DNA of 64,000 nt from an uncultured bacterium (GTDB lineage: Bacteria; Hinthialibacterota; Hinthialibacteria; OLB16), in assembly GCA_964481775.1 (NCBI GenBank), contig CAYZUX010000001.1, positions 16,840 through 80,839 on the forward strand, in the 5' to 3' direction. The notes under the pieces are model-generated. The model did no database searches and was not told the origin of the DNA. It saw only the letters and a list, made by a program, of their open reading frames with translations. This document shows positions 4,411-63,945 of this stretch, piece by piece; within the stretch, counting starts at the first letter, position 1; every line of letters begins with the position of its first letter. Position numbers and translations under genes: made by a program.

Positions 4411-5091
4411 ATGAAATCTTATAAACCAATTCAGTTTTTCAGCAGAGGATTTACTTTGATTGAGCTTCTCATCGTGATTGCAATCATCCTGATCCTGATT
4501 GCAATCGCACTTCCGAATTTTCTTGAAGCCCAGATCCGGGCCAAGGTCGCCAGTGCACGAGGAGGACTTCGTTCTATCCAGACGGGATATGAGGCTTATT
4601 ATGCAGACTATAAGCAATATGTTCCATCTCATCGTTTCAGCTTCCTCAACCGCGCAAGTCCTCCGAACATCGACGGATCAGACATGCGGCTCCTGACTAC
4701 ACCGATTCCATATATTAAAAATGCTTTACCACGCGATCCTTTCACGAATAGAGATCCCTATGCCGGACTCTCGTACAATACAGAGTCCTACTTCACAGCC
4801 TATGGCGCCTGGCGTGGTCCTGATGGGAGTACCAAGTATGCGAATGACGGACCAGGTCCTTTTGGCATGGTTCCCGTTCCTTTTGACAGTTGGATGGGAT
4901 GGAGCTCGGGGCCAGACAATCAGGCACAGACGGGTGGTTACCGTCCGGAACAGATCGTGATGAGAAATGAACAATTGGGATTGAGGAACTATTCTCCTTA
5001 CTACAACGGTGTCCGCTACTCTCCAACCAATGGGACTACAAGTCTCGGCGATATTTATGTATTCGGGCCTGGTGCAATCAGAAAGTATTGA
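4411..5091 (+). CDS. GspG-like pseudopilin / prepilin-type N-terminal cleavage-methylation domain protein (paralogue 1 of 3)
   Basis: AAGGAG RBS 7 nt upstream. The class III leader is MKSYKPIQFFSR|GFTLIELLIVIAIILILIAIALPNFLEAQIRAKV, with G-1/F+1/E+5. The C-terminus (SPTNGTTSLGDIYVFGPG) resembles the GspG calcium-binding loop. Confidence 0.85.
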   Translation: MKSYKPIQFFSRGFTLIELLIVIAIILILIAIALPNFLEAQIRAKVASARGGLRSIQTGYEAYYADYKQYVPSHRFSFLNRASPPNIDGSDMRLLTTPIPYIKNALPRDPFTNRDPYAGLSYNTESYFTAYGAWRGPDGSTKYANDGPGPFGMVPVPFDSWMGWSSGPDNQAQTGGYRPEQIVMRNEQLGLRNYSPYYNGVRYSPTNGTTSLGDIYVFGPGAIRKY

Positions 5092-5140: not shown

Positions 5141-7951
5141 ATGACGGCAGCAAGTGTGTTTTACCGTTGGGTCGTTCCCGCAGTAATCTCATTTCTCACA
5201 GTTGTTTCCCTCCCAGCCTCTGCTTACACCCTTGAAAGAGTTCCGACAGACCATACTACAATCCAGGCTGCTCTCAACTCGGTTTCTCCTGGTGGTACTG
5301 TGCTCATTGAAAACAGCGCGGTTTATGATGAAGAACTCGTGATTCAGACTGCGAATATCCGCATTGTTGCGGCCTCCGGTGAAACCCCCACGATCCGCTA
5401 TGCGGGTGGCCAGAGCTACATCATTTTTGCTGACAAGCCTTGCAGAATCGGTTCCAACACTGGTGGGCGCATCACCATTGACGGAAACCGTGGTGGCCCG
5501 GGGACCCAGACTCATGTTTTTCGAACGGTTCATACCTCCGGGGAAGTGCGGATCGAGAACATTGACGTCACTAATGTACGCAATAACCAGGTGGTCTATC
5601 CAAGTGGCGGAACAGCAGATATCACACTCAACAATGTACATATCGATGGCGGAGGGATCCTTCAATTTGCCATCCGTGTTGATTTTTTGAACAGTGTACT
5701 GACTCTTAACTGTGTCACACTCACAAATTGTGTCCGTGAGTGTATATTTTCCGCCAATGCCGCAACTGGTGTGATCAATATCAACAATTCGGTCCTCTCC
5801 GCGGGATTCGATGTGGTCTTTTTTGATTTCGCGGCCGGTGGATTCACCCTGAATATCAATGATTCCCTCATCAATGAAACAGGTGGAGGTGGAGGTTTCA
5901 GCGCTTTGTATACCCGTGGTCCCATGACCATAAACATGGCGAATTCCGTGATTCGCACGGGTGACATCGATGGTTTTGGTTTCTACCATTTTGATGACCA
6001 GGCGGGAACGGGACCTGTGAATTTTAATGCTGATCATTGCGATTTTGTCGCTGACTTCCCCTTCCGCCTCCTCTCCAGCACGGCGGCCAATAATTACACC
6101 TTAACAAACTGCAACTTTGTTCATGGTCCCTCGGCTGGACGTGGACAGTTGCTTGGTGGAGCCGGTGGCGGCGATGACACCTTTGTTTGGGATTATAACA
6201 ATGTCCAGAGTAACAGCTATGATGCCTTTCCGGTCGGAGCGAATGATATTCACATCGATCCACTTTATACAAACGTCGCAAGCGGGGATTTTACATACTC
6301 TGATGCGACGGTCCTTGTATCGGATAGTGCCGGAGGACCAATCGGCGCCAACGCGGCCTTTCCTGCTAGTATCTGTGCGGAGGATTTTGTGATCCGTGTG
6401 CCCTCTGATTATCCGAGTATCCAGGCTGCAATTGATGCCTCAGTTCCATATGGCGTGGTTAGGATTGAGGACAGTGGAATTTACGAGGAATGTCTCTTGA
6501 TCAGCATACCGGGACTTACCATTGAGGCTGCTCCCTGCCAAAGCCCGGTGATCCGCTACAACGGTTCGCAGAGTTACCTGGTACGGATCACTGAACCATG
6601 CCAGTTCGGATCGAATTCAGGCGGCCGGATTTTGCTTGACTCGAACCTGGGTGGTCCGGGATCTTTATCACGTGTCCTGGATGCTCTGCATACATGGGGA
6701 ATGGTTGTCTTCGAAAATCTGAGTCTGGACAACATGCGCAACACTTACATGTTCAGACCGACTGCATCAACCAGCGATGTTACAATGAACAACGTGGATG
6801 CGGATGGACATGATCAGGGTCTCGGATTGGCAATAGTTCAATTCCCGATCAGGCTCGATACTCACAACAGTACCTTAACTCTCAACTATTGCAACTTCAG
6901 ACGGATGGCTCGCGATGCGATCTATTCAGCTGGATCAGCTTCCGGAGTGATCAACATCCTCAATTCCGTTGTCGAGGCGGGTTTTGATACCGTCTTCTTT
7001 GACTTTGCAGCCGGAGGATTTACAATCAACATTGATAATTCCTACATAAATGAGACAGGCGGAGGCGGAGCGTTTTCATGTTTTTATGTGCGTGGACCAA
7101 ACACCATCAACATGAAGAATTCCGTACTTCGTACCGCGGATTTTGATGGTTTTGGTTTCTATCATTTCGATGACCAGGCAGGGGCTGGACCTGTGATTGC
7201 GAATTTTGACCATTGTGATTTTGTTGCGGATTTCCCATTCAGATTGCTGAGTAGTTTTTCGGCGAATGTTTATACGGTGACTGAGTGCAATTTCGTTCAC
7301 GGCCCAACTGCATCTGGAAGGGGTCAGCTACTCGGTGGCCCGGCTGGAGGAGATGACACCATCATCTGGGACTACAACAATGTTGTCAGTAATTCCTATG
7401 GTTCCTTCCCGGTTGGTGACCACGACATTCATATTGATCCATCCTACACCTCAGTTACTAGTGGAAATTTCACCTATTCAGAACCAACGGTTTTGGTTTC
7501 GGATTCCTCAGGCGGACCCCTTGGAACCAACACGAACTTCGGACCTTCTGTCCATGTACCGACCCTCTCACTGGATTACACACAGGGTACTGGCTTTGAG
7601 GTGGATGTTCTGGCGCCAGATAACACCCCGGCAGCGCAACCGAAAAGTCAACCTGTCCATGTCTTCTCGCAGAATGTCGGTAATGTGCTTATTTCCACGC
7701 TGAATATAAAGGGAACAAATGCAGCGGATTGGAATATCTTGTGTGATCCACCGATTATTGTGAACAAGTCTTGCCCGGTCTCCATTAAGGTTGAGTTTGA
7801 TCCACAGGAAACCCAACCCACCTACGGCCTTATCGCTTCATTGGAAATAGGCACGAACGATCTTGCCAATGCTGTGGTAACAGTTGCCCTGGAAGGAGAT
7901 GCGGTTGGGGGTGTTCCATCGGCGGTTATCGACTGGAGTATCTACGAATAG
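5141..7951 (+). CDS. Large secreted beta-helix (pectin-lyase-fold) protein with an internal tandem duplication and a C-terminal choice-of-anchor-D/ASH-like beta-sandwich domain
   Basis: GGAGG RBS upstream. Signal peptide MTAASVFYRWVVPAVISFLTVVSLPASA. Two ~385-aa repeats (aa ~29-410 and ~413-800) share long identical blocks (GFGFYHFDDQAG.GPV, HCDFVADFPFRLLSS, GRGQLLGG.AGGDDT). The C-terminal ~130 aa follow the pattern F..NVG.....T..I.N.G...L.I........F...C.....P..SC....F.P.......A.L.I..N.....V.L.G. Confidence 0.85.
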   Translation: MTAASVFYRWVVPAVISFLTVVSLPASAYTLERVPTDHTTIQAALNSVSPGGTVLIENSAVYDEELVIQTANIRIVAASGETPTIRYAGGQSYIIFADKPCRIGSNTGGRITIDGNRGGPGTQTHVFRTVHTSGEVRIENIDVTNVRNNQVVYPSGGTADITLNNVHIDGGGILQFAIRVDFLNSVLTLNCVTLTNCVRECIFSANAATGVININNSVLSAGFDVVFFDFAAGGFTLNINDSLINETGGGGGFSALYTRGPMTINMANSVIRTGDIDGFGFYHFDDQAGTGPVNFNADHCDFVADFPFRLLSSTAANNYTLTNCNFVHGPSAGRGQLLGGAGGGDDTFVWDYNNVQSNSYDAFPVGANDIHIDPLYTNVASGDFTYSDATVLVSDSAGGPIGANAAFPASICAEDFVIRVPSDYPSIQAAIDASVPYGVVRIEDSGIYEECLLISIPGLTIEAAPCQSPVIRYNGSQSYLVRITEPCQFGSNSGGRILLDSNLGGPGSLSRVLDALHTWGMVVFENLSLDNMRNTYMFRPTASTSDVTMNNVDADGHDQGLGLAIVQFPIRLDTHNSTLTLNYCNFRRMARDAIYSAGSASGVINILNSVVEAGFDTVFFDFAAGGFTINIDNSYINETGGGGAFSCFYVRGPNTINMKNSVLRTADFDGFGFYHFDDQAGAGPVIANFDHCDFVADFPFRLLSSFSANVYTVTECNFVHGPTASGRGQLLGGPAGGDDTIIWDYNNVVSNSYGSFPVGDHDIHIDPSYTSVTSGNFTYSEPTVLVSDSSGGPLGTNTNFGPSVHVPTLSLDYTQGTGFEVDVLAPDNTPAAQPKSQPVHVFSQNVGNVLISTLNIKGTNAADWNILCDPPIIVNKSCPVSIKVEFDPQETQPTYGLIASLEIGTNDLANAVVTVALEGDAVGGVPSAVIDWSIYE
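5226..7541 (+). repeat. Intragenic tandem duplication, two units of ~1.15 kb (approx 5226..6366 and 6383..7541)
   Basis: The two units translate to ~40-75% identical protein blocks. The nucleotide copies differ at many third-codon positions, so the duplication is old and not an assembly artefact. Confidence 0.8.
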
Positions 7952-20289: not shown

Positions 20290-21570
20290 ATGAAAGCCGG
20301 AGTGGGTAAAGTACTCATAACACCTGAAACGAGTATGTGGCTGGCTGGATACGCACACCGTGATCGTCCCTCCCAGGGAGTACTATGTGAGCTTTATGCA
20401 AAGGCTTTATCATTCGAGGATGAAGCTGGTTCACAGTTTGTCCTTGTAACAACAGACATTCTGGGATTCACAAGGAATGTGGCCGCACAGATCGCTGACA
20501 GGGTAAAGGAAGAATGTGGCATTCCCCGGGAACAGTTGATGTTGACCTCCTCCCATACTCACAGCGGGCCAGTGATAGGGGATTGCCTGATCGATATGTA
20601 TCATCTGAATCCTGAACAAATGGACTTGGTTAAGAAATACACTGTTGCCCTGGTAGATCATGTCCTTCAGGCGGTGAAACAGGCAATCAGGAATCTTGAA
20701 CCTTGTTCATTATCCTGGTCAGTTGGCAATGCGGCGTTTGCCCACAATCGGCGGGAGTATACGGAGGAGGGGGTTATCATCGGTTGTAACCCCGAGGGCC
20801 CGACAGACCATGACGTCCCAGTTCTGCGTGTAAATCGCAAAGATGGTTCTGTCAAAGCAGTTCTGTTTGGTTATGCCTGTCATAATACTGTCCTGGATCT
20901 TTGCGAGTTCAGCGGCGATTATGCCGGTTATGCACAGTTGACTTTGGAAGACAGTATCCCAGGAATGGTGAGTCTTTTCGTCAGCGGATGTGGTGGCGAT
21001 CAGAATCCATTGCCACGCAGAAGCATAGAATTGGCCAGGAAGCATGGACAGGACCTTGCCACCTCAGTGCTTGAGACATTCCATAGACAAGCCGCTGATG
21101 TTCATGGCCCCATCCATGCCGTATTTGAGGAAGTTCCTCTCAAATTCCGGTATCAGGATTATCGCAAAGAACTGGACGACCAGATTAAAGGAGGGAATGA
21201 ATACCTCCGCAACACAGCCGCACGTTTACTCGCACGGCTCAGAGACAATGGGGAGCAACCAGCATTCTATCCCTACCCCGTTCAGATCTGGTGTTTCTCG
21301 AACACACTCCAGCTAATCGCCTTGGGTGGGGAGGTGGTGGTTGACTATTCGCTTCGATTGAAACAGGAACTTGGACGGGAAAGGAATTTTATTTTGGCAT
21401 ACGCCAATGATGTGATGGGATATATTCCAAGCCTTCGGGTTTTGAACGAAGGTGGCTACGAAGCGGACTTCTCGATGGTTTATTATGGATTTTCCGGAAC
21501 TTGGGATGATCAGATTGAAACAACAATTATCGAAGCGGTTCACCGCTTGACAAATGAAGCCAAGGTTTGA
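20290..21570 (+). CDS. Neutral/alkaline ceramidase N-terminal-domain-like hydrolase
   Basis: N-terminal pattern MKAGVGKVLITPETSMWLAGYA.R.....GV.CELYAKAL.FED..G...VLVTTD..G..........LMLTSSHTHSGP matches the ceramidase N-terminal domain signature. Confidence 0.55.
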   Translation: MKAGVGKVLITPETSMWLAGYAHRDRPSQGVLCELYAKALSFEDEAGSQFVLVTTDILGFTRNVAAQIADRVKEECGIPREQLMLTSSHTHSGPVIGDCLIDMYHLNPEQMDLVKKYTVALVDHVLQAVKQAIRNLEPCSLSWSVGNAAFAHNRREYTEEGVIIGCNPEGPTDHDVPVLRVNRKDGSVKAVLFGYACHNTVLDLCEFSGDYAGYAQLTLEDSIPGMVSLFVSGCGGDQNPLPRRSIELARKHGQDLATSVLETFHRQAADVHGPIHAVFEEVPLKFRYQDYRKELDDQIKGGNEYLRNTAARLLARLRDNGEQPAFYPYPVQIWCFSNTLQLIALGGEVVVDYSLRLKQELGRERNFILAYANDVMGYIPSLRVLNEGGYEADFSMVYYGFSGTWDDQIETTIIEAVHRLTNEAKV

Positions 21571-23990: not shown

Positions 23991-25979
23991 TCACGGCTTT
24001 TCTCTTTCCTCAGGAAAGTCCAACCCCTGTGTCAGCCATGACAATGAAAAACGCACAAAACGAATCCATTCACGGCGGTGCTTTTCACCCCCTTCAAAGA
24101 GCAGACCGATATCACCATCAGGCAAACGGACCATGGATGAATACGATGAAGGGCCATGATGGATGAGCCTCTTGACAGGCCATGTCTGACCTTCATCATA
24201 ACTCACCCTGACTGTCATCCGGGTCCGCTCCACTACGTTGAATTTTTCACCGGAATTGTCTGGATTTGAGAACAGGATACGCCCTTTCTCATCCGGGCCG
24301 GGAAGGCTGTACCTCGCAAGACTTGCCTGGCAGGGACATTCATTCAGCGTGCGGTCCCAGCGAAAGTTGGACCAAGTCCGTCCACCATCCTCGCTGATGG
24401 CGACCCCCCGGCAACTCATCCCCATGTCGCCGCGCATGTTGAGCATCAGTTTCCCATCTGCCAGTTCAACTGCCTGACATTCATCAGACAGAACAGATAC
24501 CGCATCTCCCAATGTCCAGGTCTTGCCATGATCATCGCTGTAAAGAACTCGCGAATGGAATTCTTCCTCGCATTCTTCGTTGGGCTCTCCTGTATAACCC
24601 GGGATGACTAACCTTCCGTTTTTCATCTGAAGTCCCACACCTGGGCCGGGATTGAAGGTATCGTCATAATTGGTGATGAACGGACCGATGTCCACCGGCT
24701 CGGACCAGGTCTGTCCGTTATCCCGGCTGATCAGCTGGAAATGCTGGTGATGGTTTGTGCTGACTTTATTGGCATTGTCGCATATCAGGATGATCGTGTT
24801 GTTGATGTAGTCAATCACCGGGCATGGATTCATGAGTGCCTCGATTCCCTGACCCTGGACAAGAGTCTGCATGGGCAACCAGGTGCGTCCACCATCCAGG
24901 CTTCGCCTGAGGACCATATCAGATGGACTCATATCCTCCTGTGAAATTTTACGGGCTTCACAGAAAGCCAGGAGAGAACCATCTGGCGCGATGAGCAGCC
25001 CGGGGATCCGGTATGTATGAACTCCCTCTGCCCCGGCGGTGAACACATTCACGAATTCCGGAGTACCGGGTTGTGGCTTCGGAAGTTTTGCCAGCACCAC
25101 ACGGAATCCGATGTCGCTCTTGATGATCGATGGAGTCTCATGATGACGTCGTGAGGACCGGCAATGGCCACCAATACAAAGCCAACTGCCTCCCCGCAGC
25201 ACACGGTGTTCGGCGGTTGCGGGTCCCACGGGATCAACCGCAATTCCGTCATAATAATAGCCATGCCAGTCCTGGCACCATTCTGAGACATTACCGCTCA
25301 TATCGTACAATCCCCAGGGATTTGGAGGTAACATTCCTACTGGATGGGCGTATTTTTCCATCGTGATCAGTGTGTTTCCCAGCCACCACGCCTTCTGGTT
25401 AATTTCGTCGTAGGCTGGATCATCTCCCCAATAAAATCTTGTCGTGGTTCCCGCACGGCAGGCATACTCCCACTCCGCCTCGGTTGGGAGACGGAAATCC
25501 CTTCCTGTGATTGTTGCCAGCCTGGTTGTGAAGGTATGAGCATCTTCCCAGCTGATGTAAACTGCTGGGCTGCGTGGATTTTCACTGACATATCTGTGTC
25601 CTTTCCACGGCTCATTCCCCATGACAGCCTGCCACTGCTCCTTGGTCACCTCGTACTTTCCGATCCAGAACCCGTTGGACAGTGTCACTGGGTGTGCCGG
25701 TGTTTCTTTGTTGGGATAGGCATCCTGTTCCTTTTTCCTTTGACCCATCATGAATGAACCACCGGGAATCCAGACCAGATCGAGTTGAACTTCCCCAGGA
25801 AGAATGATGGTTTCGTTTGCTTTACTCTGGAATCCCAGGTTCGCTTCTGTTGCATTTCCATCAGCAAATGCGGCCAGGGAAATTTCAAACAAGAGAGTAA
25901 CCATGACCTTGATTATTGTGCTGGCCACACATTCTGTTTTTCGAGGTATCATGTTTGTCTTCATTCCCATTTCACTCAC
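23991..25979 (-). CDS. Secreted fusion protein: N-terminal FGE-sulfatase (SUMF1-like) domain plus C-terminal GH33 exo-alpha-sialidase (BNR repeats)
   Basis: FGE-domain motifs: WIPGGSFMMG, VSWEDA, RLPTEAEWEYACRAGT and RVLRGGSWL. Sialidase motifs: YRIPGLLIAPDGSLLAF (RIP/arginine triad) and the Asp-boxes SLDGGRTW, SRDNGQTW, SDDHGKTW, SEDGGRTW and SYDEGQTW. Confidence 0.85.
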   Translation of the reverse strand: MSEMGMKTNMIPRKTECVASTIIKVMVTLLFEISLAAFADGNATEANLGFQSKANETIILPGEVQLDLVWIPGGSFMMGQRKKEQDAYPNKETPAHPVTLSNGFWIGKYEVTKEQWQAVMGNEPWKGHRYVSENPRSPAVYISWEDAHTFTTRLATITGRDFRLPTEAEWEYACRAGTTTRFYWGDDPAYDEINQKAWWLGNTLITMEKYAHPVGMLPPNPWGLYDMSGNVSEWCQDWHGYYYDGIAVDPVGPATAEHRVLRGGSWLCIGGHCRSSRRHHETPSIIKSDIGFRVVLAKLPKPQPGTPEFVNVFTAGAEGVHTYRIPGLLIAPDGSLLAFCEARKISQEDMSPSDMVLRRSLDGGRTWLPMQTLVQGQGIEALMNPCPVIDYINNTIILICDNANKVSTNHHQHFQLISRDNGQTWSEPVDIGPFITNYDDTFNPGPGVGLQMKNGRLVIPGYTGEPNEECEEEFHSRVLYSDDHGKTWTLGDAVSVLSDECQAVELADGKLMLNMRGDMGMSCRGVAISEDGGRTWSNFRWDRTLNECPCQASLARYSLPGPDEKGRILFSNPDNSGEKFNVVERTRMTVRVSYDEGQTWPVKRLIHHGPSSYSSMVRLPDGDIGLLFEGGEKHRREWIRFVRFSLSWLTQGLDFPEEREKP

Positions 25980-26420
25980 CCTCCATTAACCCCGTTATCA
26001 ATCCCATGATGGACGAGAACCTGGTATCTGTGAAATCATAGGACTATTGTCCATATTCCCCGGTAAATTGACACCCCCGGCTCTGATGATGCAGTCCATT
26101 AGTGGAAGACAGCCTGATATCTCCGGATAACACAATCCTGATTGACTAACAACATGTGTGATCCACAAGAGTCTGACGAGAGCATCGATATAATGGTTTA
26201 CGTATTCAGTGGTTCTATGGTAGATTGTCCATGTGGAGTTGGAGAGACTATTTTCATGCGTGTCTCGATATCGGTGTGAAAATAATTTATTTATGAGATG
26301 AATACAGAATCACCGCTTTCAAGGCGTGTCTCCTTTCTGATTGATTGTTGATCGGTGTACTATGAGGAATGAGGTCCCATTGCAAAATAAGTAAATGCAT
26401 CTCGCTGAGGAGGTTATTCC

Positions 26421-36654: not shown

Positions 36655-38442
36655 TCACTGATATGTTTTCCATGTATCGACGATGGATGGAATGAAGATC
36701 TCCTTGAAGAAGGGGAGAGGACAAGCCATCTGATTCATCGCCGCGACAGAATCCCCACGCCAGAGAATTGTAATCTGCCTGTCATTGATCGTTTCTGTTT
36801 CGAGCCTGAAGGGAATGTCCATCTGGATCGTGAATGTATCTCCAACAGGCAGGTCAGACAGGATCAGGAAAAGACCCTCAAACTGTTTCTCGGGCGTATT
36901 TTCGAGGCCGGTAACTTTCAGAGTATCCCGGTTAACCCAGGAGGGTAGTCTCACATGCAGGTCACCGCCCACCCGGAGCGTGACCTCAACTGCATTTCCA
37001 TTGGGGTAGGGGCCTTTTACCAGGATCTGGCTATTATCCTGATCAAAAAGCATGAGCAGGTAATGGTTCCCATCCTGAAACTTGTAGGAATGCTTAATAA
37101 CTTCTGAAAGCGAAAGTGCCCCTCCAGCCACGATATCCATGTGAAAGGCACCCTGATGCCTGGAGTTCTTGGTTGCGATGTGACCATAGGGCGCGGGAAA
37201 ACCGAATGCTCCCTTGGTCCGCTCCTTGATGTTATCTTTTGAATCATTCAGGTCGGAGTGTGCGGCCACGAAGGAATTGTCCAACAGCTGGGATGGAAGC
37301 AGGTGAGCACGAGTGTACCGTTCGGCATCTTCATAATATTCAGTCCATCCCCGGTCGCCAAGAATCATGGCGGCTTCGGCGAGTTCTCCAGTTGTGTTTA
37401 CCTCTCCGGTGTCACTCTGGCTGCGAGTATTTTCTGGCACCCATCCGGTTGAGCTGCGAACAACTCGAAGTCCATTATCGTACCGGGCCCGGGCCCGGTT
37501 CATCATGGTCGCATCCCCTATCTCAAGCGCAACTCTGGCAAGCGCATTCATCTCGCGGGTTGGGCCTAACATGAAAAATGTATTGGCGGGTAAAGAACCA
37601 TCCTCCGGGAATTTCAGTGACATGAGGTTATTCGCATAGATCTGGCACATTTCGAGAGATGGGGCGTATCCAGTTGCCTGATAGTATTCCAGGAAGGCGA
37701 GAACACAGGTGGAGTCAGTTCCATAGCCGGGACTACCCTGTGGCCAGCCCTGTCCCAGTATGCCTCCTGTAGTGGGAAGATTGAAATGTTCCCGGAAGGC
37801 AGCCCAACTATAGCCGGCGTCAACAAAATAAGTTTTGAGATTCGCGATTCCTTCCTCCATCAGGTCCCCGGCGGCTGTGTCGTTACGGTATTTGACGAGG
37901 GCAGCCAGGGCGCGCATGGCATGGCCATTGATTGCCCAGTAGGTGTTATAGGGTGCACCCACTGCATCGGGAGCCGCGCAGACACCCGGTACGGGGCTGA
38001 ACGAATCAAAGACCACCTGCCGGTAACGTTCGATTACCAATGGATCGACTGGCAGGCCTGTGGCAGCTTCTGTAATCAAGAGGGCCTGTAATATCTTTGC
38101 CGCGTTGACCGGCACACTGTAATAGGCGTTGTATAGCATGTAGGGAGGGTTCTGAAGCACATAACAGTCGAAATATGGAATGTAGCGGTCCTGAGGATTC
38201 TGAACATTAGACATGCAATGAATGCTCCATTGCAAAGCGAGACGAAGATCATGATCGTTTATTTGTACTGGATCGACAGCATGTGCGCCCATTGGAAATC
38301 CGGCAGCACTGATGACAATCAGCCACTTCACGCATCCTGCAGGGTTGTCCCCCCATGAGAAAATCCCCCACTCCAAATGAAGACCTTTTCCCCGGGTGGA
38401 GAGAGCGGATCCTTGGTCAATGACTTGCGAGGCCTTTCTCAT
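36655..38442 (-). CDS. Secreted paralogue (c) of the uncharacterised putative glycoside-hydrolase family
   Basis: Shares WSIHCMSNVQNPQDRYIPYFDCYVL, SDTGEVNTTGELAEAAMILGDRGWTEYYEDAERYTRAHLLPSQLLDNSFV and KGAFGFPAPYGHIA. The track ORF runs to 38547 and overlaps the pseudopilin gene. The Met at ~38442 precedes a signal peptide (KWLIVISAAGFPMGAHA) and is the likelier start. Confidence 0.6.
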   Translation of the reverse strand: MRKASQVIDQGSALSTRGKGLHLEWGIFSWGDNPAGCVKWLIVISAAGFPMGAHAVDPVQINDHDLRLALQWSIHCMSNVQNPQDRYIPYFDCYVLQNPPYMLYNAYYSVPVNAAKILQALLITEAATGLPVDPLVIERYRQVVFDSFSPVPGVCAAPDAVGAPYNTYWAINGHAMRALAALVKYRNDTAAGDLMEEGIANLKTYFVDAGYSWAAFREHFNLPTTGGILGQGWPQGSPGYGTDSTCVLAFLEYYQATGYAPSLEMCQIYANNLMSLKFPEDGSLPANTFFMLGPTREMNALARVALEIGDATMMNRARARYDNGLRVVRSSTGWVPENTRSQSDTGEVNTTGELAEAAMILGDRGWTEYYEDAERYTRAHLLPSQLLDNSFVAAHSDLNDSKDNIKERTKGAFGFPAPYGHIATKNSRHQGAFHMDIVAGGALSLSEVIKHSYKFQDGNHYLLMLFDQDNSQILVKGPYPNGNAVEVTLRVGGDLHVRLPSWVNRDTLKVTGLENTPEKQFEGLFLILSDLPVGDTFTIQMDIPFRLETETINDRQITILWRGDSVAAMNQMACPLPFFKEIFIPSIVDTWKTYQ

Positions 38443-38521
38443 CCCGGTGTACCCGAATTCCTTTAAGACTGGGGCGGCATCAATCGTGTGGCTCACGCTT
38501 GATGCCCAAACCAAAACTGGT

Positions 38522-39124
38522 TCAGAACTGATAACCTCTCCCTCCAAAGTATTTCAGGTCGCCATTACTGTCCGTTCCATTGGTTGGATTATATGGGATA
38601 GGTCCTTGAGGTGGACTCAAACGGGCTCCACTGAAACGATCATTATCACGGTCAGGTCCCCAGCCACGCATCTGGTAAGGTGCGCGAATCATTCTTCCCT
38701 GTATATCGTAAAACTCGATGAGTGCTCCTTGGGCCAGGTCATCATAAAGGAAGTAATCAAAGGTTCTGAACTCATTGTATGGCGGCTGTTCGCCATTGCC
38801 ATTAAAGATGTCATCGGGGACGATAGACATGTACTTCACTGGTGTAGTCAAAGGGACAAGTCGTTGGAGGTAGCTTTTGAAATTTCCCGGTGTCTTGTTG
38901 ATGACTCCGGAGATGTACTGCTGGTAATCACCGCGATAAGCCTCGAGTGCTGTCGCCACTGACCTCATATCAGCATAATTGCGTGTTATTTTGGCGCGTA
39001 CTTGAGCTGAAAGAAAGTTGGGAAGCGCAATCGCGATCAGTATGAGAATAATGGCGATGACGATCAGCAACTCGATCAGGGTAAAACCACGGCGGGACAA
39101 CACGATTAGAACCTCCTTCTGCAT
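38522..39124 (-). CDS. GspG-like pseudopilin / prepilin-type N-terminal cleavage-methylation domain protein (paralogue 2 of 3)
   Basis: MQKEVLIVLSRR|GFTLIELLIVIAIILILIAIALPNFLSAQVRAKITRNYADMRSVATALEAY with C-terminus NPTNGTDSNGDLKYFGGRG. The track ORF begins 17 codons upstream at 39175. A start at 39124 would give a 12-aa leader like that of paralogue 1. Confidence 0.85.
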   Translation of the reverse strand: MQKEVLIVLSRRGFTLIELLIVIAIILILIAIALPNFLSAQVRAKITRNYADMRSVATALEAYRGDYQQYISGVINKTPGNFKSYLQRLVPLTTPVKYMSIVPDDIFNGNGEQPPYNEFRTFDYFLYDDLAQGALIEFYDIQGRMIRAPYQMRGWGPDRDNDRFSGARLSPPQGPIPYNPTNGTDSNGDLKYFGGRGYQF

Positions 39125-39202
39125 ACAACTCTTTGACTTGGGAAAAAACTGGCTGGAAGTGGGGAGGGTGATCAAACCGGCCCACTTCCAGCCAGCAAAA
39201 GT

Positions 39203-42301: not shown

Positions 42302-42415
42302 TCCCCCTGTTCGCCAACTTGACAGGTTTTTCCTTCTTGGCTCATCAACCGATAACCTGCACCCTGTTCGGCCTTGATATAGCAGTGCTTCACCGCCTTT
42401 TCTTCGAGTCCGTTT

Positions 42416-42520
42416 GTGGATTCCCGCTTTCGCGGAGTTGACGAGACAAGCAAATTTCCTCGTAAATCGTCTTTCCCGCGAAAGCGGGAATCCACGGTTG
42501 CCACTCTTTTCAACAGGCTG
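42416..42520 (+). repeat. Palindromic intergenic repeat element, copy 1 (long hairpin)
   Basis: Arms gtggattcccgctttcgcggagttgacgaga and tcgtctttcccgcgaaagcgggaatccac are inverted repeats around a ~20-nt loop. The tail ggttgccactcttttcaacaggctgc follows. A near-identical element is at 63837..63945. It sits exactly between convergent stops (42301 and 42521). Confidence 0.8.
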
Positions 42521-49656: not shown

Positions 49657-50231
49657 CTAAAATGGACCCACGCGAAGTATGTCACCATTGCTCTGAGTGC
49701 CATTGGTGGGGGAGTAAAAGATCTCACGTATATTCTTTACACGGTAAGGATCCATGACGATATCAATATCTCTGTCGGGACCTTGAGATGCGATGTACCA
49801 TTCCGATTTTCTCCCCAGGATGGTGGTCAGGATCTGCTTGAAGAAAACTTCACCCTCCCATGTATTCTTCAATGGAACAATAAAATCAAAGACCCTGTAT
49901 TGCTTGGGATTTGTGTTCCAATCACTCAGGATGACATCATCCCCAAACTGGTCGATGGGAAATCCCGCGATATATTTCACGGGTGTTGTCAAATGAACCC
50001 ATCTTTGCTCGATATAGCGGGTATTTGCAGCGGCTGGATATTTCTTGAAGTCAAGATGATATGCCTCAAGGGCAATACCATACGAGCGAATTTCCGCCGT
50101 CACTTTCGTAACCTTCGCCCGAAGCTGGGCTTCGAGGAAGTTGGGTAATGCAATAGCGATAAGAATCAGAATGATTGCAATGACTATCAGCAGTTCAATT
50201 AAGGTGAATCCCTGTCTTGATATTGTCCGCA
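49657..50231 (-). CDS. GspG-like pseudopilin / prepilin-type N-terminal cleavage-methylation domain protein (paralogue 3 of 3)
   Basis: MRTISRQ|GFTLIELLIVIAIILILIAIALPNFLEAQLRAKVTKVTAEIRSYGIALEAY with C-terminus SPTNGTQSNGDILRVGPF. AAAGAGGA lies 8 nt upstream of the ATG at 50231; the track ORF starts 12 codons earlier at 50268. Confidence 0.85.
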
Positions 50232-50271
50232 TCTGGTTATCCTCTTTTTCCATCTGTTTGTCTGGCACGGA

Positions 50272-53200
50272 TTATTTCGTTTCAAGCCAGACTTTAAGTG
50301 TGTCACATTTTCGGTCCCGGATTCGTTCGACCTCAGATACGGCAAGATTTGAGATCTGAACAGGTTCTTCATCATCTATCGATATCAGGCCTGGACGAAC
50401 GGCATTAGTCCCATAAGTATTGCTGCGAGCCGGATTGATATAGATGAGCAGGATCTTGCCCAGAAAAACACAGGTGAATGTGTTACCTGGAATTGGAACT
50501 TCTTTGCCGTTCCATTGAAGTGTGGTTTCATCTGGATGAAACCAGGTTCCGGGCAGGACCGGTGATAGTGAAAGACGTAAAAGCCCATTCTGCGTGTAAA
50601 ATGGGCGCTCTCCCACGGTCAAAATGAGCCAGATATGAATGAACTCCGCTGTTGCACCGGATAACCTTGCAACAAATCCCTGGCCACGAACCTTTGGATC
50701 GGGGCAAACACTCGAGGCAATGAAAGAGCTATTTTCCAGGATGCTCCTGCCATAGATGGCGGGATCCATGAATGGAACAAGCATCGTCTCGGAATCTCTG
50801 AAGAACTGGTCAATCAATCCTGCTCGGAGGATTTCAAGGAGATACTTGTAACTCATGTGCGGCCAGACAGATTCATTCTCGAACCAGCCACGTGTAAAGG
50901 TACGCGCGCGCCCGATAGTTGCAGGCCAACTTCTCAGGGAATCGTTCAGCTTGTACATGCATAATGCGTGGTCAAAAAGAGGGCTATTACGGACGCTCCG
51001 GTATATCTGGAGGGCTTTCCCGGGATCCTCCATATTCCTGAGCAAATGTACCTGCCCTTCCAGAAAAAGGGGAAGGCTTTCATGGTGAAAGTTCGTTATG
51101 CTTACACCGGTGATGTCTTGCCCGATACGGGAAGGATCGGTAACGTCCACAGCTGAGAAATTTCCGGGTTTCCCGATGTAGTAAGTATGAACCAAGCCTG
51201 TTTCAGGGTCTTTGGCGGCCTCAAGACCCTTGCTAGCTTTACACTCCACAGCCTGTAGCAAAGTCTCGAGGTGATTTCCTTCAATCGACTTCGTCAAGCC
51301 GGTTGTCGTCTGGTAAACCCGGTGGCGGAAGTCTTCCCTGAGATGGGTCGCTGAATCCCAATTGGCATCCTGCTCCCGAAGAAGCGTTATGGCTGATTCC
51401 AGGAACTCAGCCACTTCCAGGGGAAATGTTGTTGTGGGAGGCTGGGGCAAGTTTTTCCGGAGCCAACGCGCCAGACGCGCCAGCTCGGCAGTCTCACAAG
51501 TTGAGGATCCAAAGAGAGCAGGGAGCCCATTAAGCGAGTCATTCCAGCCGGGACGCCCTGCCTCCATCTCGATACCGATGCCTTGGGAATCAAACGAAAG
51601 GGCTTTGACTGCACAGAGGGTACAAAGCTTGGCAAATGGTGTGACAGGTGGAAGGCCCTGATGGATTGGAGGACCATCCTGGACAGCATGGAGTTGCAGA
51701 GGGCCTTGTGGACGAAGCTGGTACTTTTCGCTGCGATCCTTCACCCTGGCTCCATTCCAGAACCAACCAATATCCGCAGTTTCTGTCAGCATCGATTGCA
51801 GCTCATCAGGCCAAATTGCGGCAAAGGATTCCAGCAGATCTGTGACATAGGTCCAGTGATCGATCCAATAACCACCCTCATGACCCGATGCGGCCAGCGT
51901 GGTGTCGCAATGCTGCAGGATTCTGAATGCCCAACTCCAAACACGAGTAGCAGGTATTTCGTGCCGCATGGCCCATGCAACCAGGGACCCCGGAGAGAAA
52001 GGATGCTCAAGTATCCGCTTAAGACTCTCCAGCGAGGACCCTGAAACATCGGACAACAACTCCTCAAGACAGAGATTCCTGGGGAAAATCCAGCGATACC
52101 CATCGATCGCCAGAGGATTATACCCATCCGCCTGGATCAGAGAGAGAAACAAGCGGATCTCGGTATCTTTCAGTTCCGGGTGAAACCACACATTATGCCG
52201 CCGATTCTGCAGGATATCCCGGAAATTTCCGGGACCGCTGGAGAGTGGTTCATCGGGAACGACAAAATCGTTGTAATCCCTTTCAAGATCTCCATGCCTG
52301 CGTCCATAAAGATAGACTGGACGGTCCCCCTCACGACTGGGAAGAAACTCCGGTATCCCTCCTCGCAGAAGGTTGTCAAGGTAATTTTGACGGCAATAAG
52401 CGTCGAACTCAGGCCGGCTGGAACGGGTGAAAGCGGGAAGCGTGACAGAATGAATCAGGTCTTTGCTGGCTTGGCTGAAACGCTGAATGTCATCCTGATG
52501 CCGGACTTGCTGGAGGAAATGATTAGCCATTGATTCATGATGAGCATGGCCAAACATCTCAATGAGTCTGATGGATTTCCCCGCCTCCAGGATGGTTTCC
52601 ACCCCCGCAAATGCGCAGGGCATCCGGTTCTCCCATACCTGGCCGTTACGATCCAGATGGTCCTCTTCAATGAAAATTCTCGGTATCACCAGGTCATTAC
52701 CGATTCCAAATACAATGCCTGGATCCACCACGGGTTCAATGGGGTGAAGCTTGTCTCCATCCATTAACCAGGCGGCAAAGAAGTTTCCTTCCTCAACTTC
52801 CCCCACCTCGGCTTCGTCATGGACTCGGACACGTGATGAATAGAATGCCGTTGAACCACCAATGAGACGTACCGAAGCGTAGGCCTCGTGAATCCGTCTC
52901 ATCTTCTTGATTCCAAAATCGGTGAATCCCGCAGGCAGAATGAGTGGCAATCCATCCAGGACGGAGACCTTGACCTGCCCTGTACTTCTGTTGGTTATCT
53001 TCACAACCCTGATCAAGGCGGCCACGGGCTGGTCGACTACACTGAGATACTGCATTTCAAATTGGAGTGGATAACTGCTGGGGACTTCACTGATTTTTAT
53101 ACGGTCTGATTCGATCGTCAGTAAGCGCCGGCTCCTGGTGCTTTCCCGCGAAAGATTGTTCTGGAAAGGTTCATAATAAGTGTTTCCCGTCTTACAAAAA

Positions 53201-53556
53201 GTCCTGAAACCCTGGAGTCCCACCATCTGATAGGCCCAGGTTGCCGGCAAAAACTCGGCGATGGCATGATCTTTGTCTCTGACACCAAATGAGACGACAC
53301 ACTGTGCACGGTTGACATACAGACACCACAGTGGAATTCCTTGTCGACCGGCAATTCCCGGCAGGAAACTCGAGAAGGGCGGTCCTTGATCGTATTGAAA
53401 GATCTGAAAAGAGCCATCCGGAGTTAGCTGATAAAGGGGCTTCCGGGGCTTGCGCCTGGACTTATCAACCTTGCCAGCGGGTTCCTTATCTGGAGAACAC
53501 TCCATGAGTTGGGAGGCTGGATCGCTGATCAGAGACTCAAGGGACATGGCACACAT
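50272..53556 (-). CDS. Large, apparently cytoplasmic (alpha/alpha)6-type glycoside phosphorylase/hydrolase-like protein (GH94-like WND motif)
   Basis: No signal peptide. An N-terminal beta-sandwich-like region (GIPLWCLYVNRAQCVVSFGVRDKDHAIAEF) is followed by a large helical domain containing GRPGWNDSLNGLP, which resembles the GH94 catalytic-acid region (DWND). The first ~88 codons of the track ORF (to 53820) look non-coding, so the start is placed at an internal Met (~53556) and is uncertain. Confidence 0.5.
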   Translation of the reverse strand: MCAMSLESLISDPASQLMECSPDKEPAGKVDKSRRKPRKPLYQLTPDGSFQIFQYDQGPPFSSFLPGIAGRQGIPLWCLYVNRAQCVVSFGVRDKDHAIAEFLPATWAYQMVGLQGFRTFCKTGNTYYEPFQNNLSRESTRSRRLLTIESDRIKISEVPSSYPLQFEMQYLSVVDQPVAALIRVVKITNRSTGQVKVSVLDGLPLILPAGFTDFGIKKMRRIHEAYASVRLIGGSTAFYSSRVRVHDEAEVGEVEEGNFFAAWLMDGDKLHPIEPVVDPGIVFGIGNDLVIPRIFIEEDHLDRNGQVWENRMPCAFAGVETILEAGKSIRLIEMFGHAHHESMANHFLQQVRHQDDIQRFSQASKDLIHSVTLPAFTRSSRPEFDAYCRQNYLDNLLRGGIPEFLPSREGDRPVYLYGRRHGDLERDYNDFVVPDEPLSSGPGNFRDILQNRRHNVWFHPELKDTEIRLFLSLIQADGYNPLAIDGYRWIFPRNLCLEELLSDVSGSSLESLKRILEHPFSPGSLVAWAMRHEIPATRVWSWAFRILQHCDTTLAASGHEGGYWIDHWTYVTDLLESFAAIWPDELQSMLTETADIGWFWNGARVKDRSEKYQLRPQGPLQLHAVQDGPPIHQGLPPVTPFAKLCTLCAVKALSFDSQGIGIEMEAGRPGWNDSLNGLPALFGSSTCETAELARLARWLRKNLPQPPTTTFPLEVAEFLESAITLLREQDANWDSATHLREDFRHRVYQTTTGLTKSIEGNHLETLLQAVECKASKGLEAAKDPETGLVHTYYIGKPGNFSAVDVTDPSRIGQDITGVSITNFHHESLPLFLEGQVHLLRNMEDPGKALQIYRSVRNSPLFDHALCMYKLNDSLRSWPATIGRARTFTRGWFENESVWPHMSYKYLLEILRAGLIDQFFRDSETMLVPFMDPAIYGRSILENSSFIASSVCPDPKVRGQGFVARLSGATAEFIHIWLILTVGERPFYTQNGLLRLSLSPVLPGTWFHPDETTLQWNGKEVPIPGNTFTCVFLGKILLIYINPARSNTYGTNAVRPGLISIDDEEPVQISNLAVSEVERIRDRKCDTLKVWLETK

Positions 53557-53844
53557 GATGGTCACGTTAACAACGATAGGTCCAAAAAAGTCTCTTGTCA
53601 AGCGAGTATTGTGTAAAACGTATACAGGATAATCCCGGTTGGGTTTCGTAAGTCTAATAAAATCAATATAAAAAAGTAATTTTACTGGGTTTCTTCTGGC
53701 TTGGTACTTGTCCCTCTCGAAGCTTTGGAGAACTGTATTTGCCAGATACCAGCCATCCGGAATCCCGTTTTTATATTGGCTTGACAAGCCAATATACGAC
53801 AAGTATGTTATGGATAACATAAGTCAGTTCAGGCACTTTTTTCT

Positions 53845-63782: not shown

Positions 63783-63836
63783 TCGGAAGATTCACCGACA
63801 GCCGCTTGTTGAAACCTCATTCTTGCGAAGAGACTG

Positions 63837-63945
63837 TGGATTCCCGCTTTCGCGGGAATGACGAGACCAGCAAAATATTTCGAAAATCGTCATTCCCGCG
63901 AAAGCGGGAATCCACGGTTACCCTTCATTTTCAACAGGCTGCCAG
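63837..63945 (+). repeat. Palindromic intergenic repeat element, copy 2
   Basis: Arms gtggattcccgctttcgcgggaatgacgaga and tcgtcattcccgcgaaagcgggaatccac form a perfect ~29-bp inverted repeat. The tail ggttacccttcattttcaacaggctgc follows. It lies 55 nt after the stop at 63782. Confidence 0.8.

Follow-up and report, generated by a model that had tools for sequence, protein, structure and literature searches.

Substrate targeting in bacterial sialidases usually comes from appended lectin modules. CBM40 is the lectin-type module of the sialidases of Vibrio cholerae, Clostridium perfringens (NanJ) and the pneumococcus (NanA), and N-terminal β-sandwich domains are found in those of Bacteroides, Tannerella and Porphyromonas. 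In the large form of the Micromonospora viridifaciens sialidase (1EUT), a C-terminal galactose-binding domain is attached via an Ig-like linker. To our knowledge, no described bacterial sialidase has a targeting module with the fold of the formylglycine-generating enzyme (FGE), and we know of no FGE-fold member that is established as a carbohydrate-binding module (CBM). No paper linking an FGE-like domain to a sialidase was found in the literature searched.

In FGE itself, both Cys residues of the active site bind Cu(I), turnover needs Trp228 and Ser266, and the natural ligand is a peptide (PMC6676471). The fold also occurs without this chemistry. TvpA of Treponema denticola is a DGR variable protein that has the FGE fold but lacks FGE activity, and ligand binding is its presumed role (PMC5758913). 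PorK uses the fold for docking, as a protein-protein interface (PMC12421860), and the same use is documented in T6SS immunity proteins (bioRxiv 10.1101/2021.05.21.445229).

Results

Organisation of the fusion gene

The window, that is the whole 64-kb stretch of DNA analysed, includes an ORF that was initially annotated as a secreted protein coupling an FGE-like domain to a sialidase. The features assigned to it are listed in Table 1. The ORF is uninterrupted, with neither an internal stop nor a frameshift, and the break between the two halves that had been raised as a possibility is not present. From residue 4 on, its translation is 100% identical to the database protein P0001. The ATG at 25970 is likely the start codon of the gene, and translation from this position gives a 659-aa product that is the same as the database gene call for P0001 (659 aa).

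Table 1. Positions in the window of the fusion gene and of the features assigned to its product.
Feature	Coordinates	Strand	Evidence or remarks
Whole ORF as listed	23991..25979	-	GTG start; 662 codons; stop codon 23991-23993; no internal stops
Likely true start	25968..25984	-	GGAGG 25984-25980, 9-nt spacer, ATG 25970-25968
Signal peptide or membrane-anchor helix, P0001 aa 1-37	25860..25970	-	AFA|DG after hydrophobic stretch; AF2 helix
FGE-sulfatase (FGE-type C-type-lectin-like) domain, ORF aa 67-295	25095..25781	-	PF03781, E 6.6e-54
Loop S-W-L-C-I-G-G-H-C (P0001 S262...C265...C270)	25161..25187	-	aligns on FGE Ser/Cys/Cys active-site motif; C265 codon TGT 25176-25178
Pro-rich short interdomain linker, P0001 aa 296-309	25044..25085	-	pLDDT ~94; low conservation
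GH33 six-bladed β-propeller sialidase domain, P0001 aa 310-650	24021..25043	-	RIP; five Asp-boxes; catalytic R321, D346, E497, R513, R582, Y610

The Pfam match to PF03781 bears out the description of the N-terminal half as FGE-like, and BNR_2 (PF13088) matched ORF aa 334-625 with an E value of 9.3e-35. The full-length AF2 model of P0001 (pLDDT 87.4, pTM 0.84) has a helix at residues 14-37 followed by a disordered stretch. As judged by pTM alone, the FGE-like domain is modelled as packed rigidly on the propeller, with the short ordered linker between them. When modelled alone from a shallower alignment, the N-terminal domain gave a poor and ambiguous model (pLDDT 57.9, with residues 127-235 below 50), and this model was left out of the fold search. 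Mean pairwise identity reaches 62.5% in the FGE-like domain and 67.5% in the sialidase, but falls to 34% in the linker and 18% in the signal region. Conservation nearly equal to that of the sialidase, together with the quality of the full-length model, suggests that the FGE-like domain is functional and integrated with the sialidase.

The N-terminus is hydrophobic in 45 of 52 orthologues, and a lipobox ending in Cys is found in many of them. An exported, cell-envelope-associated protein is the best reading of these signals, in keeping with the secretion that was first proposed.

Distribution and authenticity of the fusion

Both Pfam domains occur together in ~58 protein clusters (90% identity clustering), at 58-77% identity. 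A search of other genomes, as recommended in the initial annotation, recovered the same fusion at 23 loci in ~22 GTDB species-representative genomes, with the carriers mostly labelled Hydrogenedentota and many of them uncultured bacteria. Clustering at 50% reduced the whole fusion family to one representative, P0049. Because the architecture recurs across these clusters and loci, the junction is not an assembly or frameshift artefact of the window, and the coupling of the two domains in one protein is real. The idea that two adjacent genes were fused by a sequencing or assembly error was rejected and can be disregarded for practical purposes, given the continuous frame, the same architecture in independent NCBI, ENA, JGI and Logan assemblies and on multi-megabase contigs, and the ordered linker in the AF2 model. 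Nor were split FGE-like/sialidase neighbours seen at 54 sialidase-only loci, where the sialidase orthologue has no FGE-like gene closer than 6 kb. Two candidates for such a split ('Rosetta stone') arrangement, L031 and L033, in which the match began inside the FGE tail, proved to be plain sialidases with signal peptides of their own.

In a neighbour-joining tree without support values, two sialidase-only pairs (68-69% identity) nest inside the fused clade, which suggests that the FGE-like domain is accessory rather than essential. The fusion would have had a single origin, in a lineage of mostly Hydrogenedentota-labelled genomes.

The predicted sialidase

Among solved structures, the C-terminal half (aa 312-649) is closest to the GH33 sialidase of M. 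viridifaciens (1EUR, E 1.6e-45; also 1EUS), with ~33% identity over ~340 residues and the same six-bladed propeller, catalytic residues and Asp-boxes. A Foldseek search with the AF2 model gave target-normalised TM scores of 0.82-0.85 to 1EUR, 1EUS and 4J9T (E ~1e-29). The arginine triad formed by R321 (in R-I-P), R513 and R582 aligns with the M. viridifaciens arginines. HMMER placed E345 opposite the M. viridifaciens Asp, leaving the neighbouring D346 offset by one residue. All six catalytic residues (R321, D346, E497, R513, R582 and Y610) are invariant, being present in 52/52 orthologues. Exactly five Asp-boxes of the form S-x-D-x-G-x-x-W were found, at P0001 positions 357, 415, 478, 526 and 590, and among the orthologues their number is five in 31, four in 19 and three in 2. 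Every GH33 sequence hallmark is present, including the RIP motif and the five Asp-boxes pointed out in the initial annotation, and the C-terminal half is best read as a GH33 exo-α-sialidase.

As judged by homology and the invariant residues, the propeller would follow the standard retaining mechanism in cleaving off terminal sialic (or related nonulosonic) acids. The carboxylate would be held by the arginine triad R321/R513/R582, Y610 would be the nucleophile, activated by E497, and D346 would act as the acid/base.

The large M. viridifaciens form resembles the window protein in bearing an accessory module, there a sugar-binding one, but its module is C-terminal, whereas the FGE-fold domain is N-terminal and joined by a short linker. 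The lectin-module sialidases likewise combine a GH33 catalytic propeller, which matches structurally in Foldseek, with a non-catalytic N-terminal module; in the window protein, however, the added module has another fold. A Pfam scan of the window protein detected no CBM40, CBM32 or any other known CBM family.

Comparison of the N-terminal domain with FGE

In a PDB profile search, the N-terminal domain matched TvpA at 2.4e-36, true FGEs at ~1e-32, PvdO at 5e-32 and PorK at 2e-25. The single-sequence match to TvpA was 6e-32, and over both kinds of search true FGEs matched at ~1e-27 to 1e-32. The domain shares its Pfam family, fold, conserved Ser and second Cys with bona fide aerobic FGEs (human SUMF1, S. 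coelicolor, T. curvata and M. tuberculosis), and in the alignment the window copy has a Cys at the first position as well. In the HMMER alignment, S262-x-x-C265-x4-C270 falls residue for residue on human FGE S333/C336/C341 and on the S. coelicolor motif, with a 3-residue deletion relative to the FGEs just after it. P0002, the closest relative of the window protein, also has S-x-x-C-x4-C in the exact FGE register.

Unlike these enzymes, the fusion family does not conserve the Cys pair. Position 265 is Cys in 2 of the 52 orthologues, Thr in 21, Ser in 18, Ala in 4, Asp in 4, Gly in 2 and Asn in 1, and the TGT codon of C265 is a single base change away from a Ser codon. Position 270 is Cys in 48/52, and S262, the equivalent of T. 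curvata S266 and human S333, is kept in 42/52. The O2-pocket Trp (human W299, T. curvata W228) is replaced, by S229 in the window copy and across the family by Ser (38), Phe (7), Ala (3) or Lys (3). G260, G261, W263, G268, R271 and R275 do not vary at all, while H277 and C270 are almost as constant. Among the 152 closest FGE-like domain copies, CxxxxC occurs in only 2, and the loop lacks Cys altogether in 71.

Sulfatase clients of an FGE were also not seen nearby: a scan of 40 neighbouring ORFs of at least 200 aa in the window detected no sulfatase domain, and no sulfatase genes are listed beside four orthologues. Near the orthologue P0025 there are an arylsulfotransferase-like gene and an FGE-like gene distinct from the fusion.

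Assignment as a true FGE, which looked positive on the single-sequence alignment, was dropped at the family level after comparison with the 52 orthologues and the 152 related repeat domains. At that level, Cys oxidation by the N-terminal domain is unlikely and the domain is probably non-catalytic, which agrees with the original doubt about such an activity. The proposed check for the Cys pair had a divided outcome, in that both residues align in the window copy but the orthologues do not conserve the first; without the orthologues, the check would return a 'yes' that misleads. As the window copy and P0002 bear the motif in the FGE register, the window protein itself may have kept, or regained, some ability to bind metal.

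Relatives of the FGE-like domain

TvpA (PDB 2Y3C), the best solved match, has the FGE-type C-type-lectin fold and, as in most orthologues, only the second Cys of the pair. It differs in that a retroelement diversifies the loop that is strongly conserved in the fusion family, and in having no attached enzyme. A DGR template repeat was not found for the fusion gene, which is touched by none of the direct or inverted repeats of the window, and no reverse-transcriptase domain was detected in the window ORFs scanned. With the loop also conserved, the possibility that the gene is a DGR target was rejected.

Significant matches were also obtained to PorK/GldK of the T9SS ring, PvdO, pFGE/SUMF2 and the FGE-like T6SS immunity proteins, all of which lack the FGE catalytic apparatus and reuse the fold for binding or docking. 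Unlike the window protein, none of them is known to be fused to a glycoside hydrolase. Since its NCBIfam scores are far under the cut-offs (118 vs 500 for PvdO and 104 vs 350 for GldK), the window protein does not belong to the PvdO or GldK families.

The nearest sequence relatives of the domain (35-54% identity) are found in Planctomycetota, Verrucomicrobiota and Hydrogenedentota, in multi-repeat proteins named 'formylglycine-generating enzyme family'. These proteins are giant and extracellular; each has 3-11 copies of the domain in tandem, an arrangement typical of binding modules, and often PKD, DUF1566, BACON, LamG, Ig-like or kinase modules as well. The initial generalisation that such domains mostly occur alone or in fusion with kinases is too narrow. 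The signature RGGSW-x6-CRSAxR is common to the multi-repeat proteins and the N-terminal domain, but the former have tandem copies without a sialidase and are themselves uncharacterised; they are automatically annotated as 'formylglycine-generating enzyme' or 'nonheme iron enzyme'. A two-domain profile search at E <= 0.001 gave 243,442 matching cluster representatives, and the best 149 single-architecture matches are tandem FGE-like arrays.

Genetic context

No homologues of the 14 window neighbours were found within 6-8 kb of the fusion gene in 26 other loci, and all-against-all clustering of the flanking ORFs of the 26 loci revealed no recurrent partner. The only large cluster consisted of antisense ORFs of the fusion gene itself. 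A Gfo/Idh/MocA-type oxidoreductase occurs among the flanking ORFs of 5 loci. No sialic-acid catabolism genes were found linked to the fusion gene. A ceramidase-like ORF two genes away, considered as a hint of glycosphingolipid use, was dropped because it is not syntenic in other loci. The fusion gene is solitary, outside any conserved operon, and no conserved neighbourhood points to a substrate.

Discussion

The reading that we favour, as somewhat more likely than not, is an exported GH33 exo-α-sialidase with a conserved non-catalytic FGE-fold module that putatively binds a ligand and would target or position the sialidase. A conserved non-catalytic module contiguous with a glycoside hydrolase is the architecture expected of a CBM on a CAZyme. 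The N-terminal domain would bind something via the conserved loop GGSW-x3-GG-x-CRSSRR-x-H, which is predicted to take the position of the active site in FGE and, in TvpA-type DGR proteins, of the variable region that binds ligands. Candidate ligands are a part of the sialoglycoconjugate substrate or a cell-surface partner. Recognition of glycans or sulfated sugars, as first proposed for the domain, would be a candidate role; the fusion gene is linked to neither sulfatase genes nor genes of sialic-acid catabolism. By analogy with the lectin/CBM domains of other bacterial sialidases, the domain may target or position the enzyme. A bolder and less probable proposal is that the FGE-type C-type-lectin domain represents a new carbohydrate-binding (or substrate-selecting) family, rigidly joined to GH33, through which these uncultured bacteria would single out one kind of sialo- or nonulosonic-acid glycoconjugate. 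A variant in which the window copy, having regained S-x-x-C-x4-C, is a Cu(I)-binding oxidase as well as a sialidase is much less likely.

Instead of recognising a glycan, the FGE-like domain might bind a protein partner or envelope component, as PorK does PorN and Tli3-type immunity proteins do effectors, and so keep the sialidase on the cell surface or within a complex. The documented interfaces of PorK (a significant PDB match) and of the T6SS immunity proteins speak for docking or anchoring of this kind, as do the lipoprotein signals in many orthologues and the peptide nature of the FGE ligand. It is nevertheless rather unlikely, as the 26 loci offer no conserved neighbour gene as a candidate partner, tethering is already supplied by the lipoprotein or anchor signals, and sialidase-only relatives without the FGE-like domain exist. 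A second catalytic activity on the substrate, unrelated to FGE chemistry, such as stripping of a sialic-acid modification, would fit the strong conservation of the loop that matches the FGE active site, and EgtB, OvoA and PvdO of the same family take part in different chemistry. However, a recognisable catalytic constellation is absent, EgtB and OvoA require an extra DinB iron-binding domain that the window protein lacks, and the closest relatives form long tandem arrays, which are unusual for enzymes; this reading is improbable.

Lower still is the chance that the window copy is a Cu-dependent FGE or other thiol oxidase, maturing exported sulfatases that join the sialidase in acting on sulfated sialoglycans. 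The register of S262, C265 and C270 in the window protein and P0002, and the strength of the matches to true FGEs (~1e-27 to 1e-32), would be in its favour, but 50/52 orthologues that otherwise conserve the domain lack the first Cys, and CxxxxC is sporadic among the related repeat domains (2/152). The Ser in place of the O2-pocket Trp, the deletion right after the second Cys, the single base that separates TGT from a Ser codon and the lack of a sulfatase gene among the window ORFs scanned or beside four orthologues count against it as well, and make it very improbable.

The exported sialidase with a putative binding or targeting module that we prefer is of modest interest as a variation on a known theme, that of a sialidase with an accessory module, and if the FGE-like domain is only a docking piece it would be an ordinary domain fusion. 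The case also calls for caution in annotation: judged from its own sequence, the window protein seems to have the cysteine pair of FGE, but its orthologues do not conserve that pair. Glycan binding by the N-terminal domain would, if confirmed, mean a new CBM family, and would provide a functional handle on, and a first function for, a very large uncharacterised clade of tandem FGE-like repeats.

Features of the fused gene

The fused gene is a single ORF without stops or frameshifts, and translation from the ATG, 9 nt 3' of GGAGG, gives a 659-aa product that exactly matches the database protein P0001 (P0001 residue numbers are those of the ORF minus 3). The N-terminus of P0001 includes a hydrophobic helix (residues 14-37 in the AF2 model) followed by AFA|DG, suggesting that the protein is exported or membrane-anchored. 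A hydrophobic N-terminus was found in 45/52 orthologues, many with a lipobox Cys at its end, in keeping with the secreted protein predicted in the initial annotation; in the remaining 7 the gene call seems to be truncated at its 5' end. Signal peptides of the lipoprotein type, with (A/G)C at the end, were seen in P0003, P0006, P0009, P0010, P0013, P0015-17, P0024, P0026, P0032, P0043, P0045, P0048, P0049, P0052 and P0054, and the window copy has a plain signal/anchor helix without a lipobox.

Positions of features in the window, and in the fused-gene loci (L) of other genomes
Feature	Position	Strand	Remarks
Fused gene	23991-25979	-	662 codons counted from GTG
ATG start	25970	-
Signal/anchor helix	25860-25970	-
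FGE-sulfatase (PF03781)	ORF residues 67-295	-	Pfam, E 6.6e-54
BNR_2 (PF13088)	ORF residues 334-625	-	Pfam, E 9.3e-35
P0001 residues 174-282	about 25125-25451	-
Ceramidase-like ORF	20290-21570		426 aa; neutral/alkaline ceramidase, N-terminal part only (PF04734, E 1.3e-19)
N_methyl genes	4411-5091; 38522-39175; 49657-50268	+; -; -	prepilin-type
Adjoining large ORFs	5141-7951; 36655-38547; 50272-53820		no Pfam match
Direct repeat	5768-6064; 6944-7240		297 nt, 73% identity
Intergenic element D2	42415-42510; 63835-63930		96 nt, 85% identical
Stand-alone FGE-sulfatase-domain genes, L001	3388-4524; 4675-6150
Stand-alone FGE-sulfatase-domain gene, L002	1226-2359
Fused gene, L011	contig JBAOIL010000037.1		70% identity to query
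Fused gene, L025	contig JBAOIL010000005.1		66% identity to query

Among solved structures, the C-terminal half comes closest to that of Micromonospora viridifaciens sialidase (E 1.6e-45, residues 312-649), and the full-length AlphaFold model (52-sequence alignment; pLDDT 87.4, pTM 0.84) gave target-normalised TM values of 0.82-0.85 against 1EUR/1EUS/4J9T. The RIP motif and five exact Asp-boxes are present, as are the catalytic residues R321, D346, E497, R513, R582 and Y610, each invariant in 52/52 orthologues. Motifs, residues and fold thus bear out the initial identification of a BNR-repeat exo-sialidase, and the C-terminal half is, as judged by sequence and modelled fold, a bona fide GH33 exo-sialidase with predicted activity.

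Averaged over pairs of orthologues, the FGE-like domain is 62.5% identical, nearly as conserved as the sialidase (67.5%) and much more so than the linker (34%) or the signal region (18%), which speaks for a role of the domain in the protein. The linker has a pLDDT of about 94, and a pTM of 0.84 would be hard to reach for domains of ~250 and ~350 residues without confident relative placement, which hints that the FGE-like domain is packed rigidly on the sialidase. When the N-terminal domain was modelled alone from a shallower 20-sequence alignment, its second half was poor, with residues 174-282 at pLDDT <50 as compared with 81-97 in the full-length run; this could be due to the shallow alignment or to the absent sialidase/interdomain context. 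No solved structure spanning both halves was found, the best query-normalised TM being 0.47.

Distribution of the fusion

A search of 5.8 billion proteins identified both domains together in ~58 clusters (90% identity), 58-77% identical to the query and drawn from NCBI, ENA, JGI and Logan assemblies; at 50%, the entire family clusters to one representative among 1.84 billion. Among GTDB species representatives, the full-length fusion occurs at 23 loci in about 22 genomes. The fusion recognised in the initial annotation, with no break between its halves, is therefore real and recurrent, but narrow in distribution. Most carriers are labelled Hydrogenedentota, with some MAGs labelled Prolixibacteraceae, Marinilabiliales, Verrucomicrobiota and even Bifidobacterium; the labels Bifidobacterium, Prolixibacteraceae and Nitrospiraceae look at odds with the majority. 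P0002, the closest relative of the window protein, is encoded on a p_OLB16-labelled contig. Two copies of the fused gene, on separate contigs (L011 and L025), occur in the MAG AS_Ams2_Bin42, which is labelled Verrucomicrobiota.

Orthologues consisting of the sialidase alone, at 57-64% identity, occur widely across Planctomycetota, Verrucomicrobiota, Lentisphaerota and Acidobacteriota. A neighbour-joining tree built from the sialidase domain puts the fused proteins in a single clade. Nested within it are two pairs of sialidase-only proteins (P0065/P0067 and P0066/P0068; 68-69% identity), each protein having a signal peptide of its own. This tree, which carries no support values, suggests one origin of the fusion with later losses.

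Nature of the FGE-like domain

When the window protein on its own is aligned to solved FGEs, it resembles an FGE: S262-W-L-C265-I-G-G-H-C270 lies exactly on the Ser/Cys/Cys of the human and S. coelicolor enzymes. In FGE, Cu(I) is bound by both cysteines, and turnover requires the neighbouring Ser and Trp (PMC6676471). However, this resemblance is not borne out by the orthologues. Position 265 is Cys in 2/52, the window protein and P0002 only (Thr 21, Ser 18, Ala 4, Asp 4, Gly 2, Asn 1), and the window codon, TGT, is a single change away from a Ser codon; C270 is retained in 48/52. The O2-pocket Trp position is Ser in the window protein (family: Ser 38, Phe 7, Ala 3, Lys 3), and three residues are deleted just after the second Cys. 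The 152 closest FGE-like copies in other proteins have the signature RGGSW-x6-CRSAxR, with any CxxxxC in two and no Cys in the loop in 71. No sulfatase domain was found in 40 neighbouring ORFs scanned within the window, and no sulfatase is listed beside four orthologues. Taken together, these sequence features indicate that the family is not a conserved FGE, and a residual or regained metal site in the window protein alone is unlikely. The initial proposal of a function other than Cys oxidase is thus supported at the family level, though the window copy itself carries two cysteines that align on the FGE pair. Stand-alone FGE-sulfatase-domain genes lie a few kb from the fused gene at L001 and L002, adjoined in one of these genomes by an arylsulfotransferase-like gene, and are not conserved across loci.

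By sequence, the domain is closest (35-54% identity) to giant extracellular proteins that carry it in 3-11 tandem copies, often alongside PKD, DUF1566, BACON, LamG, Ig-like or kinase modules. Such tandem arrays are typical for binding modules, not enzymes. Proteins P0121-P0256, of up to 4,448 aa and with 3-11 copies of the same domain type, rank above almost all else when 1.84 billion cluster representatives are searched with a profile; this clade is auto-annotated as FGE and appears uncharacterised.

Among solved structures, the family profile matched TvpA, a Treponema denticola DGR variable protein, best (2.4e-36), followed by true FGEs (~1e-32), PvdO (5e-32), the T9SS ring protein PorK (2e-25), and then ToxD, CalU17, pFGE and EgtB. 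TvpA does not act as an FGE and is believed to bind ligands via its C-terminal loop (PMC5758913), and in PorK the former substrate groove serves as a protein-docking surface (PMC12421860). The TvpA loop corresponds to the conserved, Cys-pair loop of the fused protein. Whereas DGRs diversify this loop in their targets, the fused family keeps G260, G261, W263, G268, R271 and R275 invariant, and such conservation suggests one fixed ligand. With no repeat touching the window gene and no reverse transcriptase seen among the ORFs scanned, a DGR target was rejected.

Genomic context

The fused gene is monocistronic and flanked by + strand genes. Cassettes for polysaccharide utilisation abound in the window, with LacI regulators, ABC sugar transporters, a GH16, a heparinase II/III-like protein, LamG proteins and prepilin-type N_methyl proteins. 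Genes for sialic-acid catabolism are absent. The 14 window neighbours show no synteny in 26 other loci, no recurrent partner family adjoins the fusion gene, and no FGE-like gene lies beside sialidase-only orthologues at 54 loci. Hence, the functional link between the domains is drawn solely from the fusion and its conservation. A ceramidase-like ORF two genes away makes a pairing for glycosphingolipid breakdown tempting, and this was rejected for lack of synteny in the 26 loci.

The three N_methyl genes, all small, each adjoin a large ORF and have LacI regulators and sets of ABC sugar transporters close by, so that the cassette recurs in the window. At their 5' ends, two of the N_methyl genes form a 101-nt inverted match (I1), and the direct repeat lies inside the 936-aa large ORF at 5141-7951. 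The element present in two intergenic copies contains inverted arms, TGTGGATTCCCGCTTTCGCGG ... CCGCGAAAGCGGGAATCCACG, and resembles a palindromic repeat of the REP or MITE type.

Proposed role

The fused protein would be an exported or envelope-tethered retaining exo-sialidase, a prediction well supported by residue conservation. Its FGE-fold module is probably non-catalytic and may bind, via the conserved loop 260-280, either part of a sialoglycoconjugate (a CBM-like role) or an envelope/protein partner (a docking role). We give this reading, in which a functional sialidase bears an accessory module for binding or docking, a probability of about 0.6; within it, glycan binding specifically is possible though doubtful. 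Genuine FGE chemistry in the window copy, for which the aligned S262/C265/C270 speak, is very improbable given the rarity of the first Cys, the replaced Trp, the deletion and the lack of a nearby sulfatase, and a second activity of another kind is unlikely. An artefactual fusion can be virtually discounted, as the window ORF is uninterrupted and the same architecture recurs in independent assemblies from NCBI, ENA, JGI and Logan.

A full-text literature search found no paper linking an FGE-like domain to a sialidase. Public databases already contain the fused proteins, misleadingly auto-named 'SUMF1/EgtB/PvdO family nonheme iron enzyme' or 'sialidase-1'. The protein is a GH33 sialidase whose accessory module is unusual, not a new system, and would be of moderate interest for CAZyme specialists; it offers a tractable way to learn what a very large and uncharacterised clade of domains does.
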